From the UHGV virus genome UHGV-2105699: DNA of 46,955 bases; one strand, written 5' to 3'. Below the pieces are notes generated by a model, which saw only the letters and a list, made by a program, of their open reading frames with translations, did not search any database and was not told the DNA's origin. The DNA is from a virus. Positions 3,880 to 36,518 of the stretch are shown here, one piece after another; positions within the stretch are counted from its first letter, which is position 1; each line of letters starts with the position of its first letter. The position numbers were made by a program, and so were the translations under genes.

Positions 3880-4109
3880 AGCGCCTAAGCAACTGGCTTA
3901 TCGGCATTTGGGCGTCATTCTGCTCGCTGATTCAGCTGTGGCCTGATGCTATGGTTCATGTGTGGGCTTTCATGCCTGAAGACTTAAAGTCTGCCATTCC
4001 GCCGATTGCGGTCAAGGCGATCAGCTACAGCATCCTTCTTGCCTCGCTGTTTGGGAAAATGCACGGCATGAAGAAAGAGATTAAGGCGCTGAAAAATGAC
4101 CAGAATTAA
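3876..4109 (+). CDS. putative holin / small membrane protein (2 TM)
   Basis: 77 aa, hydrophobic segments NWLIGIWASFCSLIQLW and IAVKAISYSILLASLFG, charged C-terminus; start overlaps endolysin stop (ATGA); lies between endolysin and spanins. Confidence 0.4.
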   Translation: MKRLSNWLIGIWASFCSLIQLWPDAMVHVWAFMPEDLKSAIPPIAVKAISYSILLASLFGKMHGMKKEIKALKNDQN

Positions 4110-4476
4110 GTTAATTCTAATCGCCATAGGCGTCGCGGTAATCATTGCTGTATCTGGTTATGGCGCTGGATACCTGAAAGGATGGTATGCGCACAGCGAA
4201 AAGGTTAATCGTGACGCAGAAAAGCGCAGGCAGGCGGCGCAAAGCAAGCAGGCTAAGTCCACGACGCAATCTCAGCAAGTGCGCGCTGTGACTGAAACCA
4301 AATACAAAACCATTTACCGCGACGTGGTGAAATATGTCTCCGACCCGAATCGTAATGTGTGTGTTTTTGATGACAACTATCAGCGGTTGCGCCAACAATC
4401 CCTCGACGCCGACGCCTCCATCGGCAGAGATGCTGGGTCAGGTGTGCGAATTGTCGAAAGTGGCGCCAAAAAATAG
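4096..4476 (+). CDS. i-spanin (Rz-like): N-terminal TM anchor plus periplasmic coiled coil
   Basis: MTRIKLILIAIGVAVIIAVSGYGAGY TM segment followed by charged helical region (RDAEKRRQAAQSKQAKS...). Confidence 0.65.
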   Translation: MTRIKLILIAIGVAVIIAVSGYGAGYLKGWYAHSEKVNRDAEKRRQAAQSKQAKSTTQSQQVRAVTETKYKTIYRDVVKYVSDPNRNVCVFDDNYQRLRQQSLDADASIGRDAGSGVRIVESGAKK

Positions 4477-32521: not shown

Positions 32522-32930
32522 CAAGCCCAAAATAGAATAACGTCGCCCTTTTTAACTCCTCAAGACCATAAGAAATGGCGCCAAAGTGACCCTCTGCAAT
32601 GGCGCACTCCAGAACCTCAATCTGCGATGGCGATACTTTTGATTTTGTCTTATCACGCCTCTTCAGCTCAATCAGGCCGCATTTATGATTAATGCCGTGA
32701 GTTAGTATCACATTGTCGCTTACTCCGCTCCTGACGCCCATTTTGCGGCGTTTCTCGACGAATTGAGGGCCGCTCTTTGTTCCAGTCTCGTTAGGCACAT
32801 GAAACCACAGGACTTCAGGGAATCGGTATTGCATCCACAGACCATAGGCCATCTGGTCAGTTTCCTCCCTTGGACACTCCCCGCGATAACCACTATCAAA
32901 TACCCATATTCCACTATCAAGCTGCTTCAA
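32514..32930 (-). CDS. VRR-NUC domain nuclease
   Basis: 138 aa with VRR-NUC-type core (GVSDNVILTHG...GLIELKRRDKTKSKVSPSQIEVLEC). Confidence 0.6.
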   Translation of the reverse strand: MKQLDSGIWVFDSGYRGECPREETDQMAYGLWMQYRFPEVLWFHVPNETGTKSGPQFVEKRRKMGVRSGVSDNVILTHGINHKCGLIELKRRDKTKSKVSPSQIEVLECAIAEGHFGAISYGLEELKRATLFYFGLDE

Positions 32931-33451
32931 TTTGTTCTCCTACCGTGGTTTTTATGGAATCCATGCTTAACCTCAGCTTCCGCTCTTGCTTTTGCCGCAT
33001 TATTAAAATCAACAAATAATCCAAGATAAATGTTTTTACCTTTGACTTTTATTTGAGCCATCCATTTCTTCCTGTCTGAGTTCCATGTCACACCAGTAAC
33101 TCCAGAGGAGTTATTGGTTGCGATACCTTGATTCATGCCATTCCCAAGATTATTAACTAGCCTGAGATTTTCTATTCGATTATCATCACGAACATGATTG
33201 ATGTGATCAATCTGCATACCTCCTTGTATTGGCTCGTTATGCATTTCCCATATGATTCTATGTGCACGATAAAGACCCCTGCCAATTCTGACCATTACAT
33301 AACCAAACCTTGGGCGCTTGTTGCCTGCCGCTTTATATGCAAACCTAGTATTCCAAGTAGCTGCTGACTTCTTCGTCTTAAAAGTTGAAACATTTCTCTC
33401 CTTCCATATCAGAAGGCCATTTTCATAGTAAAAATAATCATGCCAGTTCAT
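32927..33451 (-). CDS. HNH homing endonuclease with AP2 domain (copy 3 of 3)
   Basis: YRAHRIIWEMHNEP...IDHINHVRDDNRIENLRLVNN and AP2-like SGVTGVTWNSDRKKWMAQIKVKGKNIYLGLFVDFNNAAKARAEAE; ~80% nt identity to copy 1 over the HNH core. Confidence 0.8.
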   Translation of the reverse strand: MNWHDYFYYENGLLIWKERNVSTFKTKKSAATWNTRFAYKAAGNKRPRFGYVMVRIGRGLYRAHRIIWEMHNEPIQGGMQIDHINHVRDDNRIENLRLVNNLGNGMNQGIATNNSSGVTGVTWNSDRKKWMAQIKVKGKNIYLGLFVDFNNAAKARAEAEVKHGFHKNHGRRTN

Positions 33452-35069
33452 TTTTTTGTCCGAATTCTTTTCTGTGGATGATATCGCGGCCTTTATCGTT
33501 AAAACGATGCGTTATGCGTTTTGGCGCGCGGATAAGACCAGTGAACGCCATGAATGCTTTTGCGTTGTGGCAATTCATGAGGTTATCAATCATATTCCTG
33601 TCTGATACGTGGTTTAGTAATCCTTTAATCTTAAACTGATTTTTAAGGTACTTCTCCTGCCTGCCAAATGGATAGAAAACCTCACTGGCCCAGCCATCTT
33701 TGCCGTTTTCTTTCGTGATGAAGTAACGATAAACAACGCCCTTCTCATCTTTCGTTAGCTCAATCTTGAAATCCTTGACTTCAGTCCATTCATTATCCGT
33801 ATAAGCACGCTCATTGAGAGCCGCGTTAGGGTCGCGCAAAACGTGATCGCATTGACGGCAATAACGAGCTGTCGGGTCGTTTTTTGTGCCGCAACCATCA
33901 TCAAAAATACGGATGCCGTGCTTGTCGAAACCGCAGCGAATGAAGCTGAAAAACTCTTCGCAACGACCATCTGGCGACGTTGAGTCTTTACCGATGCAAC
34001 GCCGTGCATATGGGCTGTTCATCGTCTGGCATTTAGGGCATGGAACCTGCTCTCCGCTACGCTTGGCGCGCTGCGCTTCTGCTTCCTCAAGAATAGGGTC
34101 TTCGTAGAGTTGGCCAAGCTCAAACATTGTTCCCGAGAAATCGAGAACCAGATGATCTTCTTTATGATACCCGGCTTCTATGTGTTCTTTTTTAAGTAGT
34201 CGCATACCCCTGCCCAATAATTGGACAAGAAGAGTTAACGACATTATTTTCCTTAGTATGACGCTTACATCCCACAAAGGTATGTTTACACCTGTTGTTA
34301 ACGCCGCAATTTGGAATGTGTATTTTATTTTTCCAGTGTAGGCATCTTTTAGAGCCTTCCGGCGAGCTTTCATGCCCATATCTTCAGTTACTATCGCATA
34401 GCTTCCTTCTGGTAAATATTTAGCGGCTTCCAAGCAATGCTTTTTCCCGGCACATGTAATCAATACCCCGTTCCTGTTTTTGGTCAACTCCATAACCTTG
34501 AGCATGATTTTCTGTGTAAGCGTACCTTGCTCAAGGATTTCTTTCTGCATCTGCTTTAGTTGTTCGGCAGTGAAATCCTGTGTGCCATCGCTTCCTGATG
34601 CCTCAAATGCTGACAGATCGTAATGCAAATCATCAATGTCATGCAGGCCAAAAATCGTCGGCACAAGAAACCCAATATCAACAAGATATTTGGTGTCAAT
34701 GTTTACTATTTCATGTTTCCAGTAAGCACCCTTAATCGAGTCTGTGCCACGAAAGGGACTGCCTGTATATCCAATAACGATGACATCGTGACCGTATTTA
34801 GCCTTACATCTGCGGTTAAGTTCAGTCATTATTACGCCATATTGCGTTTCAGGACTTTCGCTTACCACGTCCTCCCAGTTCATCTGGTGGCAGTTATGAG
34901 CTATGAATCCGTTTGCAACAAAGTTGTGATGGGTAGGCATCTCTATATCCCACACCATCTCATCACCAATTTCATTTATTGACTCGATTACTTTTGATTT
35001 TGTATTCCACGCCATCTTCCATGTGGTCAGCAATTCTTTTAAAAAACTCATCCTGCGCTTCCTCATCAA
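33438..35069 (-). CDS. helicase C-terminal fragment carrying an N-terminal intein C-half (IntC) - C-extein begins CHQMNW (DECH motif II), contains motif VI QLLGRGMR and a C-terminal multi-Cys zinc-finger region
   Basis: ORF begins (TTG 35069 / ATG 35066 / ATG 35048 with SD GAGGAAG) with ...KVIESINEIGDEMVWDIEMPTHHNFVANGFIAHN|C = intein blocks F and G followed by +1 Cys; same reading frame as the N fragment (36518-35069 = 1449 = 3x483). Confidence 0.6.
   Translation of the reverse strand: MMRKRRMSFLKELLTTWKMAWNTKSKVIESINEIGDEMVWDIEMPTHHNFVANGFIAHNCHQMNWEDVVSESPETQYGVIMTELNRRCKAKYGHDVIVIGYTGSPFRGTDSIKGAYWKHEIVNIDTKYLVDIGFLVPTIFGLHDIDDLHYDLSAFEASGSDGTQDFTAEQLKQMQKEILEQGTLTQKIMLKVMELTKNRNGVLITCAGKKHCLEAAKYLPEGSYAIVTEDMGMKARRKALKDAYTGKIKYTFQIAALTTGVNIPLWDVSVILRKIMSLTLLVQLLGRGMRLLKKEHIEAGYHKEDHLVLDFSGTMFELGQLYEDPILEEAEAQRAKRSGEQVPCPKCQTMNSPYARRCIGKDSTSPDGRCEEFFSFIRCGFDKHGIRIFDDGCGTKNDPTARYCRQCDHVLRDPNAALNERAYTDNEWTEVKDFKIELTKDEKGVVYRYFITKENGKDGWASEVFYPFGRQEKYLKNQFKIKGLLNHVSDRNMIDNLMNCHNAKAFMAFTGLIRAPKRITHRFNDKGRDIIHRKEFGQKNELA
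34893..35015 (-). other. intein C-terminal half (about 41 aa: MAWNTKSKVIESINEIGDEMVWDIEMPTHHNFVANGFIAHN), blocks F/G
   Basis: Classic HNF..NG...HN terminal motif immediately followed by Cys (34892-34890); length and pattern comparable to naturally split IntC halves. Confidence 0.6.
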
Positions 35070-35841
35070 AAATACTTACACAAAACATTTCGCGCTTTTT
35101 CGTTCCGCCAATGTAAGAATTAACTCGCGCTCCATTTAACCCAAGAAAATCATTCAATGCATTGGCAACTTCCCAGCATTCATCCTCAATGAACGCCTCG
35201 GTGTGAATAAATACCTGCCTGTACTTGCCGTAAGATATTGATGAATGCCCATCATCACCAAAATAAACAGCCCAACCAACTTCGTTTAACTCCCTGCATA
35301 TCTTTCCTATGTTGTACCCATTTGCTGAGTCGCCATATTTCTCAGCGTACCTGTCAAGTATCTTTGTGCATGATGTTCTAACCTGGAACCATTTGTCACC
35401 GAATCCATGATTATCCCTTTCGCTGTATGCTGCATTAAGTTTTTTGAATCTTGCGGCCTTGCACAGAGCGTGTTCTTTATTTCCCATATTCCACATCAGT
35501 CTGTGCGTTCCCCTTTTTGTGTTCTTAATCAGACACCCATCACCAGCAAGAGCGGCGAGTATGTTTTGATGCAAGAAGTAATCAATAACAAGGCCGCTAT
35601 CAACCGTTGAATTATGATGACCAGACCTAAAATCAACATAGTAACCGTAAGGATTTTCCAGCAATGCACTCAATCCTTTGCTCGCGTGCGGAAAAACCTT
35701 CTCGCCACAGCCACACTTGCACGAAGGAGCTTTGTCATAAATCTGTCCGACGAGCCATCTAACGACAGAGTCATCCCAGCCTTTAGTTTTCCCGCTTCTA
35801 CCCAGCAGCCGTTTGAATAAAGTTTGTGTGTACTCGTGCAT
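34972..35841 (-). CDS. LAGLIDADG-type homing endonuclease ORF lying between/overlapping the two intein halves, in the -1 frame relative to them
   Basis: Two LAGLIDADG-like motifs (NILAALAGDGCLIKN and GWAVYFGDDGHSSISY); ATG 35841 preceded by strong SD GGAGAGGAAATAAAATG; overlaps IntN ORF by 172 nt and IntC ORF by ~95 nt. Confidence 0.55.
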   Translation of the reverse strand: MHEYTQTLFKRLLGRSGKTKGWDDSVVRWLVGQIYDKAPSCKCGCGEKVFPHASKGLSALLENPYGYYVDFRSGHHNSTVDSGLVIDYFLHQNILAALAGDGCLIKNTKRGTHRLMWNMGNKEHALCKAARFKKLNAAYSERDNHGFGDKWFQVRTSCTKILDRYAEKYGDSANGYNIGKICRELNEVGWAVYFGDDGHSSISYGKYRQVFIHTEAFIEDECWEVANALNDFLGLNGARVNSYIGGTKKREMFCVSIFDEEAQDEFFKRIADHMEDGVEYKIKSNRVNK

Positions 35842-36518
35842 TTTATTTCCTCTCCGCCTTTTAATTTAACTGATGATACGCGTTTTATGCCATTAGTAAA
35901 TACTCTTTTAGGTTTGTGGTACACCCACTCACCAGCGACCTCATCCAAGCACTTGATTTCTTTGTTTATTAAGCTATCGTCATCAATTCTCACCCATCCA
36001 TCACTCGTCAATATCAGTGCATCACCAGTCAGGCACTCATCCATAAGAACAAAGCGAGGAGAAAAATCGGAAAGCGCACCTTTAGAAAGTAAATTACCTG
36101 ACTCGTCCTTCTTATCGAAAAGGCCATTTATTATTGTTCCCTCCGTACCAGCAATAAGCGGGTATGCCGTTGACTTTCTGCCAAGAGCAGCGCTAAAAAG
36201 TGAGTTTTTCACACTCAGATTCCACAGTTCCTCCGCATCCTGCTCAATAATTTCTGGCTGTCTTGCAATAACAAGCCCTTCCCACCCCATATCCTGAAAG
36301 CGCCGCGCAATCATGGCAATCATGATCGTCTTACCAGCACCTACCGATGCGGTAACGAAACTTGGCTTAGGGTCTTTGCCAAACTTGCGGATAACTTCAG
36401 CCGTCTTTTCATAAACCAGCCATTGATAAGGTCGTGGCTCAATCTCACCCGTATTAACAACTGACCGCAATTTGTCTATATCCAGCTCCGCAATCATTGC
36501 GTCTATTTTATGCGTCAT
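35670..36518 (-). CDS. helicase N-terminal fragment (Walker A ASVGAGKT; motif II LMDE) fused to intein N-half
   Basis: 161 extein residues ending VLMDE, then intein block A; ORF terminates 121 aa later. Joining exteins reconstitutes DECH-box motif II (VLMDE + CHQ). Confidence 0.6.
   Translation of the reverse strand: MTHKIDAMIAELDIDKLRSVVNTGEIEPRPYQWLVYEKTAEVIRKFGKDPKPSFVTASVGAGKTIMIAMIARRFQDMGWEGLVIARQPEIIEQDAEELWNLSVKNSLFSAALGRKSTAYPLIAGTEGTIINGLFDKKDESGNLLSKGALSDFSPRFVLMDECLTGDALILTSDGWVRIDDDSLINKEIKCLDEVAGEWVYHKPKRVFTNGIKRVSSVKLKGGEEIKCTSTHKLYSNGCWVEAGKLKAGMTLSLDGSSDRFMTKLLRASVAVARRFFRTRAKD
35673..36035 (-). other. intein N-terminal half (about 121 aa) beginning CLTGDALILTSDGWVRI (block A) with block B IKCTSTHKLY
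   Basis: Cys1 codon at 36035-36033 directly after extein residues FVLMDE; TxxH block B; ends at its own stop codon (35672-35670). Confidence 0.6.

Follow-up and report, generated by a model that had tools for sequence, protein, structure and literature searches.

An SF2 helicase gene interrupted at its DECH motif

The 46,955-nt viral genome UHGV-2105699, analysed here as one stretch (the window), carries an SF2 helicase gene that is interrupted at its DE/CH motif (the slash marks the insertion site) by three overlapping ORFs on the minus strand. The ORFs, the inserted element, and the helicase portions (exteins) are located as follows.

36518..35670, minus strand: N-extein plus N-terminal intein half (IntN), ORF of 282 aa
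36036..36518, minus strand: N-extein, the N-terminal 161 aa of the helicase, ResIII/DEAD-type, ending ...VLMDE
36035..34893, minus strand: whole element, 1143 bp, between the E and C of the DECH box (helicase motif II / Walker B)
35841..34972, minus strand: LAGLIDADG endonuclease ORF, ATG start, 289 aa plus stop, -1 frame relative to the helicase/intein frame
35051..33438, minus strand: C-terminal intein half (IntC) plus C-extein, ORF of 537 aa from a conserved ATG (mechanical TTG start at 35069)
33438..34892, minus strand: C-extein, the C-terminal 484 aa of the helicase, beginning CHQMNWEDV..., plus stop codon

The N-extein matched Pfam ResIII and a PHROG annotated as DNA helicase, and the C-extein matched Pfam Helicase_C and PHROG_16, also DNA helicase (E = 3.8e-52). 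When the two exteins were joined in silico, the product was colinear across DE/CH with the intein-less Seszw_1 helicase (94% amino acid identity), indicating that the intein boundaries are exact, and the spliced CDS aligned as one piece to 122 phage records. The insertion site of the window reads LMDE/CLTGD...AHN/CHQM. The predicted spliced helicase comprises 645 aa (~73 kDa), with a native DECH motif and the junction peptide ...VLMDECHQMNWEDVV. In Seszw_1, an example of the intein-less allele, the sequence around ATTGATGAATGCCACCAGATG is a candidate target of the endonuclease.

The two halves of a DnaX-related intein

35670..36035, minus strand: IntN, 121 aa, CLTGDALIL..., stop codon at 35672..35670; block A with Cys1, block B with TSTH, and block N4
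34893..35051, minus strand: IntC, 53 aa, MSFLKELLTTWKMAWNTKSKVIES...FIAHN, from the conserved ATG, with GAGGAA 7 nt upstream (35059..35064)

The best solved relative of both halves was the Spl DnaX mini-intein (7cfv). IntN residues 2-90 aligned to residues 3-90 of this protein (E = 2.7e-11, far ahead of the next match at 6e-3), and IntC residues 14-53 aligned to residues 98-137 (E = 4.4e-6); the two halves together cover residues 3-137 of the 137-aa mini-intein, and the Hint domain is complete. The splicing residues are present in the window (CLTGD..., KCTSTH, and ...FIAHN/C). Among the loci examined for these residues, Cys1, the block B T-x-x-H, the terminal H-N, and the +1 Cys were kept, except that Cys1 was not located in L005 and L011. 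When IntN and IntC were fused and modelled with single-sequence AlphaFold, the prediction was of low confidence (pLDDT 35) and lent no support to a particular mode of association.

IntN and the IntC/helicase ORF share one frame (36518 - 35069 = 1449), and each half is a separate translation unit fused to one extein. This splicing frame is truly broken: the IntN stop codon lies at a conserved position, eight stop codons precede IntC in the splicing frame of the window, and 6-17 stop codons are scattered at varying positions in the split loci. The Met that starts IntC is kept in every relative, in contrast to that of MAWNTKS, and both the IntC ATG and its Shine-Dalgarno site are conserved. From these features, we infer that the halves trans-splice, giving an intact helicase.

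A -1-frame LAGLIDADG endonuclease gene between the halves

A sequence-only reading of the window had described an ATG-initiated, 289-aa minus-strand ORF at 34972-35841, shifted to the -1 frame and containing two LAGLIDADG-like motifs. The analysis confirmed the ORF, its frame (36518 - 35841 = 677, which is 2 mod 3), and both motifs.

35695..35730, minus strand: APSCKCGCGEKV motif, endonuclease residues 38-49, conserved in the family
35521..35565, minus strand: first LAGLIDADG motif, NILAALAGDGCLIKN, residues 93-107, with invariant D101; aligns to I-SceI ILGDAYI
35230..35277, minus strand: second LAGLIDADG motif, GWAVYFGDDGHSSISY, residues 189-204, with invariant D196 and D197; aligns to I-SceI YWFMDDGG

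Profile searches supported the family assignment. Pfam LAGLIDADG_2 (PF03161) was matched by 15/15 aligned family members (best E = 9e-22); the match of the window endonuclease taken by itself (E = 1.1e-4, 22.7 bits) lies below the curated cut-off of 25. PHROG_11023, "homing endonuclease with LAGLIDADG motif", was matched with E = 7e-8, and the endonuclease family profile retrieved I-WcaI (3e-7) and I-SceI (2e-4) from the PDB. In the AlphaFold2 model, the core (residues 80-285) had a pLDDT of ~90, and residues 1-76 were of low confidence. The top Foldseek matches of the core were 6x1j (I-WcaI) and 1r7m/3oor (I-SceI), with a probability of 1.0 and a target TM of 0.70, and the model has the pseudo-dimeric alpha-beta-beta-alpha-beta-beta-alpha fold. 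G100-D101-G102 and G195-D196-D197-G198 are invariant or nearly so in the family, with D101, D196, and D197 invariant throughout; the Asp residues of the I-SceI LAGLIDADG motifs are catalytic. The assignment to the I-SceI/I-WcaI-like LAGLIDADG homing endonucleases holds, and cleavage activity is predicted.

The endonuclease is under purifying selection (dN/dS 0.10-0.19), its codon periodicity follows its own frame, and the gene appears functional. The APSCKCGCGEKV motif is possibly a metal- or DNA-binding module; it is also found in the second-tier relatives P0035-P0043, in some of which it is duplicated, and the endonuclease's own N-terminal CxCGCG module is common to the wider relatives.

Translation starts and dual coding in the overlaps

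35849..35852, minus strand: Shine-Dalgarno GAGG, 7 nt upstream of the endonuclease ATG, encoded within intein residues G-G-E-E
35670..35841, minus strand: IntN-side overlap, 172 nt; frame 0 encodes IntN block B, N4, and the KLLRASVAV tail, and frame -1 encodes endonuclease residues 1-57, including APSCKCGCGEKV
35787..35793, minus strand: GGGAAAA heptamer, phased so that a -1 slip would lead from the IntN frame into that of the endonuclease; regarded as incidental
34972..35051, minus strand: IntC-side overlap, 80 nt; the endonuclease C-terminus (…EFFKRIADHMEDGVEYKIKSNRVNK) and the IntC N-terminus in two frames

The Shine-Dalgarno site within intein block B and the 172-nt IntN overlap were both as previously read from the sequence. 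The IntC overlap, given then as about 95 nt, comes to 98 nt from the mechanical TTG but to 80 nt from the conserved ATG at 35051. The endonuclease ATG is composed of the last A of a Lys codon and the TG of a Cys codon of intein block B; it was kept in 12/12 loci tested, despite its dependence on a wobble position in the overlapping codon of the helicase frame. Most relatives have GAGG- or AGGA-type sites upstream of this ATG. The RNA around the endonuclease start was unusually unstructured (z = +2.5), falling below shuffled controls in structure. A promoter scan found sites no more numerous than expected by chance.

Both overlaps are dual-coding and constrained in both frames. On the IntN side, the codon-position entropy passes from helicase-frame wobble to endonuclease-frame wobble, and sites that are synonymous for the endonuclease stay fixed where L-L-R-A is encoded in the IntN frame. 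The KLLRASVAV tail is conserved in the IntN frame to ~35710, which contradicts the earlier view that this frame is meaningful only to ~35760. On the IntC side, all three codon positions are conserved, with entropies of 0.67/0.44/0.68 versus 1.38 at endonuclease-only wobble positions. The first 30 endonuclease codons follow the IntN frame passively in their evolution and residues 1-76 of the model are of low confidence, suggesting that the true endonuclease start could lie downstream; gene callers usually place it 50-57 codons in.

Conservation of the layout among relatives

The arrangement is real and conserved. The 0/-1/0 frame layout, the overlaps, and the start codons recurred in 15/15 readable loci with a close endonuclease homolog. 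Split loci came from E. coli phage AN_ECEAS, Pectobacterium phage Amona, a Pantoea scaffold, and contigs of Logan, IMG/VR, ENA, and JGI. Loci sharing the layout ranged from 37 to 96% in endonuclease identity and from 0.38 to 0.56 in GC. In the loci measured, the element spanned 1134-1146 nt, always a multiple of 3, with an IntN of 116-123 aa, an IntC of 53-57 aa, and overlaps of 157-178 nt on the IntN side and 68-101 nt on the IntC side. The in-phase GGGAAAA heptamer was present in the window, L001, L004, L007, L008, and L013 and absent from L002, L005, L006, L009, L010, and L011 (6/12 loci tested).

Other states of the element and its probable mobility

The comparison with relatives revealed both contiguous inteins and intein-less helicases, two states that the sequence-only reading had envisaged. 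Xanthomonas phage FoX3 and the metagenomic loci L025, L027, L028, and L030 have contiguous inteins in which the splicing frame runs uninterrupted through the region of the -1-frame endonuclease. The frame is open against expectation in FoX3 (P = 0.008; 3e-4 under a codon-usage resampling null), L025 (P < 5e-5), and L027 (P = 0.001). L029 is a three-ORF split without overlaps. In L015, 535 nt of the endonuclease core are lost, leaving an element of 605 nt in which the halves lie in different frames and both half-ORFs are intact. This natural control comes from one metagenomic contig. With the endonuclease ORF linking the two halves, only 3n indels survive, which accounts for the equal frames of the halves; this frame lock is lost in L015, where the endonuclease is dead.

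The intein-less allele was found in 122 related phage records, and the nearest cultured relatives are without the element. Between the window and L001, the exteins were 43-50% and the element 67-68% identical; between the window and L004, the corresponding values were 73-79% and 57-65%. L015 and L001 shared 49-56% identity in the exteins and ~80% in the intein halves. Within the window clade (L007, L008, and L013), extein and element identities were similar. The disagreement between extein and element identities and the patchy distribution indicate that the element is probably mobile.

Proposed mechanism and alternative explanations

We consider it likely that the locus is a composite mobile element, consisting of a DnaX-related split Hint intein and a free-standing -1-frame LAGLIDADG endonuclease gene, that acts through trans-splicing and homing. 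A single transcript would be translated from three ribosome-binding sites, and IntN and IntC would associate and trans-splice to yield the intact 645-aa helicase with its native DECH motif. In mixed infections, the endonuclease would cut intein-less helicase alleles at DE/CH, and repair would copy the whole element in. The ancestor may have been a contiguous intein that already contained the -1-frame endonuclease, a state retained in FoX3 and the dnaX intein; the gene is already in the -1 frame in the contiguous relatives FoX3, L025, L027, L028, and L030, suggesting that it was independent before the split. The junk linker of the splicing frame would then have gained stop codons in the window's lineage, a change made tolerable by trans-splicing of the halves. 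In view of P0045 and P0054, inteins that contain a related LAGLIDADG_2 domain in frame, this order of events is tentative.

Among the three interpretations offered by the sequence-only reading, a fractured intein with an independent endonuclease gene came closest. The fracture is not "recent", as had been supposed, because the layout is common to loci at only 37-48% endonuclease identity and the 6-17 stop codons are scattered; nor is the endonuclease the domain normally embedded in frame in inteins, since it is of the LAGLIDADG_2 type, has its own CxCGCG module, and is already in the -1 frame in contiguous relatives. A second interpretation was a contiguous intein with an in-frame endonuclease and two compensating frameshifts, arising either from sequencing or assembly error or from a recent pseudogene. 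The single frame of IntN and IntC, an element length that is a multiple of 3, and A-rich runs near the downstream junction accord with it, but the same frames are found in independent assemblies and cultured phages across 37-96% endonuclease identity, the endonuclease and IntC start codons are conserved, and the splicing frame contains 6-17 stop codons rather than one. The purifying selection on the endonuclease and the constraint on both frames in the overlaps also refute this interpretation, to which we assign virtually no chance, and the 3n-indel lock imposed by the bridging endonuclease and lost in L015 explains the equal frames without error. The remaining interpretation was programmed recoding, in which a -1 slip at G_GGA_AAA (35793..35787) would be followed by a +1 shift close to the stop codon of the endonuclease, yielding a canonical contiguous intein-endonuclease-helicase precursor. 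The offsets do run in the required direction (-1, then +1), and the window and some relatives have the in-phase X_XXY_YYZ heptamer. However, half of the loci tested are without the heptamer despite the same layout, the slip would bypass the conserved N4 block and KLLRA.AAV tail, which are both selected in the IntN frame, and the L015 halves lie in different frames. No conserved +1 site was identified, an Rfam search found no frameshift element or other structured RNA, and the local RNA is unusually unstructured. Recoding is unsupported by these results and very improbable.

Other alternatives concern what the parts do. The helicase could be a non-covalent two-piece enzyme, with intein halves that only hold the pieces together or are inert, and without splicing. 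Functional unspliced genes in pieces are known (Friedrich et al. 2007, cited in PMC10448857), and the locus would then resemble Aeromonas phage Aeh1 NrdA, whose gene is split by the mobE endonuclease. Here, however, the break falls within the catalytic DECH motif, so that Hint domains of 121 and 53 aa would be lodged in the ATPase site, and Cys1, T-x-x-H, H-N, and the +1 Cys persist in the loci examined, among them L015 with its endonuclease lost, which would be unexpected if only binding mattered; we therefore regard a two-piece enzyme as unlikely. It is about equally doubtful that the endonuclease no longer homes and is kept for another role, such as a maturase-like or regulatory one or as a nuclease against competing phages, with the element inherited vertically in the clade. 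The similar extein and element identities in the window clade would fit such inheritance, and dnaX alleles are reported to coexist over the long term, unlike in a simple homing cycle (bioRxiv 10.64898/2026.09.14.751524). Against it stand the disagreement of element and extein identities between clades, the nearest cultured relatives without the element, and the invariant catalytic Asp residues, and L015 has lost the endonuclease yet keeps the split intein, as a homing cycle predicts.

Comparison with known systems

I-SceI and I-WcaI, both of Pfam PF03161, are monomeric LAGLIDADG endonucleases with two motifs, found in group I introns of yeast mitochondria. The endonuclease described here shares their fold, both LAGLIDADG motifs, the acidic residues, and a C-terminal M-x-Y-K motif, but it is ~15-17% identical to them in sequence, has an extra N-terminal ~80 aa with the CxCGCG motif, and is housed by an intein, not an intron.

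Actinobacteriophage non-canonical inteins (Gosselin, Arsenault and Gogarten, bioRxiv 10.1101/2025.01.02.630785) and the hidden HNH insertion of ShiLan (PMC11855218) likewise hold an endonuclease gene within an intein or insertion, in another frame or on the other strand. In these reports, a free-standing endonuclease was proposed to have invaded an intein, with split inteins predicted as one outcome. Their genes are antisense LAGLIDADG or VSR-like, or frame-3 endonuclease VII-like, and all lie in contiguous inteins, whereas in the window, the LAGLIDADG gene lies on the sense strand in the -1 frame and the intein is split, a combination that is not among their cases.

Fractured genes, the source of the split inteins gp41-1, NrdJ-1, and IMPDH-1, have a free-standing homing endonuclease gene with a split-intein half on either side (Dassa et al. 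2009, PMC2677866). As in that report, an intein marks the break in a phage replication gene, IntN and IntC are encoded by two ORFs of one locus with a free-standing endonuclease gene between them, and the endonuclease 3' end overlaps the IntC ORF start (6-69 bp in PMC2677866; 68-101 nt here); L029 has the classic non-overlapping layout. The endonucleases of PMC2677866 are Vsr-like (EDxHD) or GIY-YIG, with LAGLIDADG unmentioned there, whereas the present one is LAGLIDADG_2; this family difference is a property of the published examples and not necessarily of the concept. In contrast to the published cases, the endonuclease here also overlaps IntN by 157-178 nt, starting inside block B, and the intein halves still share a frame. 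The same -1-frame gene also occurs here in contiguous relatives, which points to fracture by stop codons and not by the insertion itself. The published cases came from marine metagenome reads, and the present ones also include cultured enterobacterial phages.

The cyanobacterial DnaX non-canonical intein carries an out-of-frame LAGLIDADG endonuclease (Phillips, DeSimone and Gogarten, bioRxiv 10.64898/2026.09.14.751524; also Gorbalenya 1998, here through its citation). Among solved structures, the Spl DnaX mini-intein (7cfv) is related much more closely to both halves than any other, and the N-terminal CLTGD and the IKCT..H form of block B are common to both inteins. Both are inserted at DE/CH of Walker B, where the cyanobacterial dnaX locus L024 reads VIDE/CLTGD...VHN/CHML. 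The dnaX endonuclease, as described in the preprint, is in the +2 (-1) frame and resembles I-WcaI, which was the best match here too. The dnaX host is a cellular clamp-loader subunit and its intein frame is contiguous and cis-splicing, whereas the present host is a phage helicase and the window's frame has eight stop codons; the open splicing frame of the DnaX type is instead seen in FoX3, L025, L027, L028, and L030. The closest prior descriptions of the element are the fractured genes of 2009 and the out-of-frame intein endonucleases of the 2025-26 preprints.

Architecture of the split element and its boundaries

The window ORF listing contained three overlapping minus-strand ORFs at the helicase locus:

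36518..35670 (−), N-extein and IntN ORF, 282 aa; helicase N-terminal part running into the intein N-half
35841..34972 (−), middle (endonuclease) ORF, 289 aa
35069..33438 (−), IntC and C-extein ORF; intein C-half, then the remaining helicase; mechanical TTG start

Three-frame translation showed that, with respect to both intein halves, the middle ORF is in the −1 frame, in agreement with the frame arithmetic of the sequence-only reading, and placed IntN and IntC in one frame (36518 − 35069 = 1449), a point absent from that reading. Its 172-nt overlap between the middle ORF and IntN, both LAGLIDADG motifs in the middle ORF, and the Shine-Dalgarno site (GAGG, 7 nt 5' of the ATG) were recovered. 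The overlap with IntC, previously put at about 95 nt, was 98 nt when counted from the mechanical TTG and 80 nt from the ATG at 35051.

To define the boundaries, the N-extein (...VLMDE) was joined to the C-extein (CHQMNW...). The resulting 645-aa protein was 94% identical to and colinear with the Salmonella phage Seszw_1 helicase, which lacks the intein, and the junction lay inside the DECH box; therefore, the intein was delimited to 36035..34893 (−), 1143 nt. The spliced CDS aligned in one piece to the helicase gene of 122 insertion-free phage records. The spliced helicase is predicted to be approximately 73 kDa, with a predicted tryptic junction peptide spanning ...FVLMDECHQMNWEDVVSESPETQYGVIMTELNR. 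In the intein-less helicase of Seszw_1 or pIS4-A, the candidate cleavage target lies around ATTGATGAATGCCACCAGATG.

The split intein is related to the DnaX mini-intein

For both IntN and IntC, the best solved relative by a wide margin was the Spl DnaX mini-intein (7cfv; E = 2.7e-11 and 4.4e-6, respectively). IntN 2-90 and IntC 14-53 together span the whole 137-residue DnaX mini-intein fold, indicating that the splicing domain is complete and that the break lies at the usual endonuclease insertion point. Cys1, the block B T-x-x-H, the terminal His-Asn, and the +1 Cys were kept in the loci examined, with Cys1 not located in two of them (L005 and L011). A search for homologous proteins with IntN 1-94 fused to IntC 14-53 gave no match, probably owing to a word-index limit, and AlphaFold2 of the fused halves as a single sequence reached a pLDDT of only 35. 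Trans-splicing, cleavage, and homing are predicted activities of the element, and its actual start codons are likewise predicted.

The IntN tail (…DRFMTKLLRASVAVARRFFRTRAKD; 35673..35765, −) and the IntC head (MSFLKELLTTWKM; 35013..35051, −) lie outside the minimal Hint fold of the DnaX mini-intein and are nevertheless conserved in the intein frame family-wide. They may help the halves associate, a role for which the doubly coded stretches, KLLRA.AAV in IntN and FLKEL..W in IntC, could have been recruited.

The middle ORF encodes an I-SceI-like endonuclease

The window protein scored 22.7 bits against Pfam LAGLIDADG_2, just under the 25-bit cut-off, and 15 of the 15 aligned family members matched this model (best E = 9e-22). 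The family profile matched the solved structures of I-WcaI and I-SceI. The AlphaFold model had a confident core, and Foldseek ranked I-WcaI and I-SceI at the top, with PI-SceI and other intein-borne endonucleases lower. The acidic residues of both LAGLIDADG motifs were invariant. The family-level endonuclease assignment is unambiguous. The close family is small: one set of 5.8 billion proteins gave 14 clusters, and another of 1.84 billion gave 20 representatives with E ≤ 1e-30. Its members are all short proteins, and every context examined was this helicase site. In the endonuclease-only region, nucleotide variability was highest at the gene's own third codon position (entropy 1.38 vs 0.98 and 0.84), and dN/dS was 0.10-0.19 for the window and its three closest relatives. 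The endonuclease gene is under purifying selection.

A less likely explanation of the middle ORF is that it represents a canonical intein domain that became frameshifted. In-frame versions of this endonuclease lineage do exist, because the proteins P0045 (1120 aa) and P0054 (1004 aa) each contain a pair of in-frame inteins whose LAGLIDADG_2-type domains are relatives of the endonuclease (E ~1e-21 to 1e-19). However, its best matches are the intron-type I-SceI and I-WcaI, the gene carries a CxCGCG module as do its wider relatives (P0035-P0043), and the endonuclease is already out of frame in distant relatives.

The layout is conserved in cultured phages and metagenomes

Using tblastn, matches covering 99-100% of the middle ORF were found in two groups of cultured phages, at 68% identity in the E. 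coli phages AN_ECEAS and ES and at 38-39% in five Pectobacterium phages. The Amona annotation has the three ORFs as separate features, with one labelled a LAGLIDADG homing endonuclease; the AN_ECEAS annotation lacks the middle ORF. Further loci were drawn from a protein database, IMG/VR, one Pantoea scaffold, and metagenomes. In every readable locus, across GC contents of 0.38-0.56, the endonuclease frame was the helicase frame minus one, and the halves were in a common frame. The geometry was nearly fixed among the loci measured: the element was 1134-1146 nt long and always a multiple of three, IntN was 116-123 aa, IntC was 53-57 aa, and the overlaps were 157-178 nt on the IntN side and 68-101 nt on the IntC side.

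Across the endonuclease region, the splicing frame contained 6-17 stop codons at positions varying among loci, indicating that the break is old and more than a single lesion. The sequence-only reading had offered a recent fracture, compensating frameshifts (a pseudogene or sequencing artefacts), and ribosomal frameshifting as possible explanations. The accumulated stops contradict the recency of the fracture, and the preservation of the frames in cultured phages and metagenomes, together with the low dN/dS of the endonuclease, refutes a pseudogene or artefact. With regard to frameshifting, the window and some relatives do have an in-phase G_GGA_AAA heptamer, 48 nt from the start of the overlap, but it was missing in 6 of the 12 loci tested with no change in layout, and a slip there would skip conserved intein segments. 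No Rfam match was found in the region, including to group I/II introns or known recoding RNAs at E up to 1, and the local RNA was less structured than shuffled controls (z = +2.5), a feature more in keeping with an accessible internal start site than with a stimulator of frameshifting. Frameshifting at this heptamer is thus not supported.

Dual coding and start sites

To characterize the overlaps, variation was compared by codon position in the two frames. Within endonuclease codons 1-30, variation falls mainly on the helicase-frame wobble position; the intein frame rules over this stretch, where the endonuclease N-terminus is for the most part a passenger. Both frames were constrained from about endonuclease codon 36 on. 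The residue preceding the first Cys of CKCGCG is Ser, Ala, Pro, or Thr, yet its codon ends in G in 9/9 non-redundant sequences; this G keeps the Arg in the IntN tail KLLRA.AAV. In the downstream overlap with IntC, all three codon positions were conserved. These stretches of about 170 and 80 nt selected in two frames provide a clean example of dual coding.

In the endonuclease ATG, the A is the last base of an IntN codon and the TG comes from the Cys codon of block B. This ATG was kept in 12/12 loci tested; the contributing IntN codon encodes Lys, Thr, Arg, or Glu, and its last base is always A. For IntC, a start Met was conserved in all loci (MSFLKEL...), with a Shine-Dalgarno site 5' of it. 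The Met of MAWNTKS was rejected as the IntC start, as three loci lack it.

In T4 intron endonucleases, the ribosome-binding site is reported to be hidden by a hairpin. No such hairpin was found at the endonuclease start, where folding was weaker than in shuffled sequences: the RNA at 35800..35900 (−) gave −6.1 kcal/mol vs −13.0 for dinucleotide shuffles. Weak folding was also seen in AN_ECEAS (z = +1.8) and was absent in Amona. In a promoter and terminator scan, promoter-like sites were not commoner than in shuffled sequence, and a promoter-like site at 35900..35873, 5' of the endonuclease ATG, was therefore not taken as evidence.

Comparison of alleles

The element is missing from the nearest cultured relatives, namely pIS4-A and pYD38-A, both with 95.7% identity across the tail genes, and the Seszw and STGO phages; the allele in all Salmonella relatives examined was the intein-less one. 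Between the window and AN_ECEAS, the exteins shared 43-50% identity and the element 67-68%; between the window and another locus (L004), the exteins shared 73-79% and the element 57-65%; and between the endonuclease-less variant L015 and AN_ECEAS, the exteins shared 49-56% and the intein halves approximately 80%. Element and extein identities thus disagree, and this sequence pattern was taken as evidence that the element is probably mobile.

Relative to the intein-less Seszw_1 allele, 8/28 nt differed at 36036..36063, the last 28 nt of the N-extein (FSPRFVLMDE vs FCPRYILIDE), and 0/60 nt differed immediately downstream of the insertion site; neighbouring windows were 95-98% identical. The mismatch cluster could be a co-conversion tract or a target-site change. 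Directly downstream of the helicase, with a 14-nt overlap with its end, lies a 174-aa HNH endonuclease ORF (32927..33451, −; PHROG_99, E = 8.7e-60). Seszw_1 has another feature at this position, whose annotation gives nothing beyond similarity to a hypothetical protein. The HNH ORF is a candidate for a second homing endonuclease, independent of the first, at the helicase gene.

Other states of the element and a possible route to splitting

A contiguous state was found in Xanthomonas phage FoX3, in which gp40 (L003:2450..4816), annotated as a 789-aa 'putative DNA helicase', reads through a 314-aa contiguous intein. An unannotated 252-aa LAGLIDADG ORF homologous to the endonuclease lies at L003:2881..3639 in the −1 frame, and the helicase-frame translation beneath it is low-complexity filler. 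Profile search identified four further helicase-like genes (L025/L026, L027, L028, and L030) carrying second-tier endonuclease relatives, with the same contiguous overprinted layout as FoX3 at the DE/CH motif (slash, insertion site). The chance of zero splicing-frame stops was assessed by permuting synonymous codons, giving P = 0.008 for FoX3, <5e-5 for L025, and 0.001 for L027 (34% GC); codon-usage resampling for FoX3 gave 3e-4. An open splicing frame in these three contiguous relatives is thus unlikely to be due to chance.

Two further arrangements were identified. In L029:1534..4193 (ENA ERZ15184984 NODE_827), a different helicase is broken at SDE/CH into an N-half, an endonuclease, and a C-half, forming a classic fractured gene of three ORFs without overlap in three different frames; its endonuclease, a second-tier relative, carries the CxCGCG motif twice. 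In L015:2498..3102 (ERZ1034973 NODE-1394), 535 nt of the endonuclease core are deleted, leaving a 77-aa remnant ORF, and both half-ORFs and all splicing residues are intact. At 605 nt (2 mod 3), the L015 element places its halves in different frames. In the window family, the halves stay in one frame because the endonuclease ORF bridges both, so that only multiple-of-three indels survive. The shared frame suggests a relic of a contiguous ancestor. From parsimony and this shared frame, we infer that the contiguous state came first and the split later; related in-frame intein endonucleases exist.

We tentatively propose, with less than even confidence, that these loci record the stepwise birth of a naturally split intein. 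At the DE/CH nucleotide-binding motif, a contiguous DnaX-type mini-intein would first have been overprinted by a free-standing I-SceI-like gene in the −1 frame. The splicing-frame linker would then have turned into junk kept open by selection only (FoX3, L025, L027, L028, L030, and dnaX). In one phage lineage, the linker would have gained stops, producing a trans-splicing intein whose halves would be locked in one frame by the bridging endonuclease ORF, as in the window. Deletion of the endonuclease would finally leave a bare split intein (L015).

Contiguous, split, and endonuclease-less states of one element bear on the origin of split inteins. To our knowledge, the best natural split-intein examples come only from marine metagenome reads. 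Because some members reside in cultured, tractable E. coli and Pectobacterium phages, the trans-splicing, homing, and cost of each state are directly measurable. Protein ligation could also benefit from a new natural split intein whose native extein requirements are short. In these phages, the helicase is currently annotated as 'hypothetical protein' and 'DNA helicase', and the endonuclease is often missed or called approximately 55 codons short.

Comparison with known systems

The DnaX intein of a cyanobacterial dnaX locus (L024) is likewise inserted at DE/CH (VIDE/CLTGD...VHN/CHML). This dnaX allele with a mini-intein (VIDE/CLTGDSL...LLVHN/CHML) lies at ~3960..4450 of a JGI cyanobacterial contig, in which the dnaX frame appears interrupted several times in the assembly and the gene caller split dnaX into pieces. 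A genome scan with the endonuclease motifs, aimed at a full-length dnaX intein, returned the Pantoea scaffold only, and a metagenome scan with the Hint alignment returned phage loci and unrelated inteins. A search with Spl DnaX fragments yielded nothing beyond the engineered mini-intein and a single natural mini-intein allele, a result that settled the DE/CH insertion site. [quoted passage not shown] The phage elements are a candidate link to its origin, and the common DE/CH site may have let one element move between the cyanobacterial clamp loader and phage helicases.

The Ymer-genus paper on Pectobacterium phages does not mention inteins or endonucleases, the BASEL paper contains nothing specific on the element, and no description of the combined form, a split intein with a −1-frame LAGLIDADG gene, was found in the literature. 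Fractured genes with Vsr-like or GIY-YIG endonucleases and endonuclease/IntC overlaps of 6-69 bp have been described, with no mention of LAGLIDADG (Dassa et al. 2009, PMC2677866). A 2025 preprint describes actinophage inteins that carry a LAGLIDADG or VSR-like gene in antisense or an endonuclease VII-like gene in frame 3; all of these inteins are contiguous, and the authors predict split inteins as one outcome (bioRxiv 10.1101/2025.01.02.630785). Since fractured genes and out-of-frame intein endonucleases were both already described, the arrangement in the window combines two known ideas.
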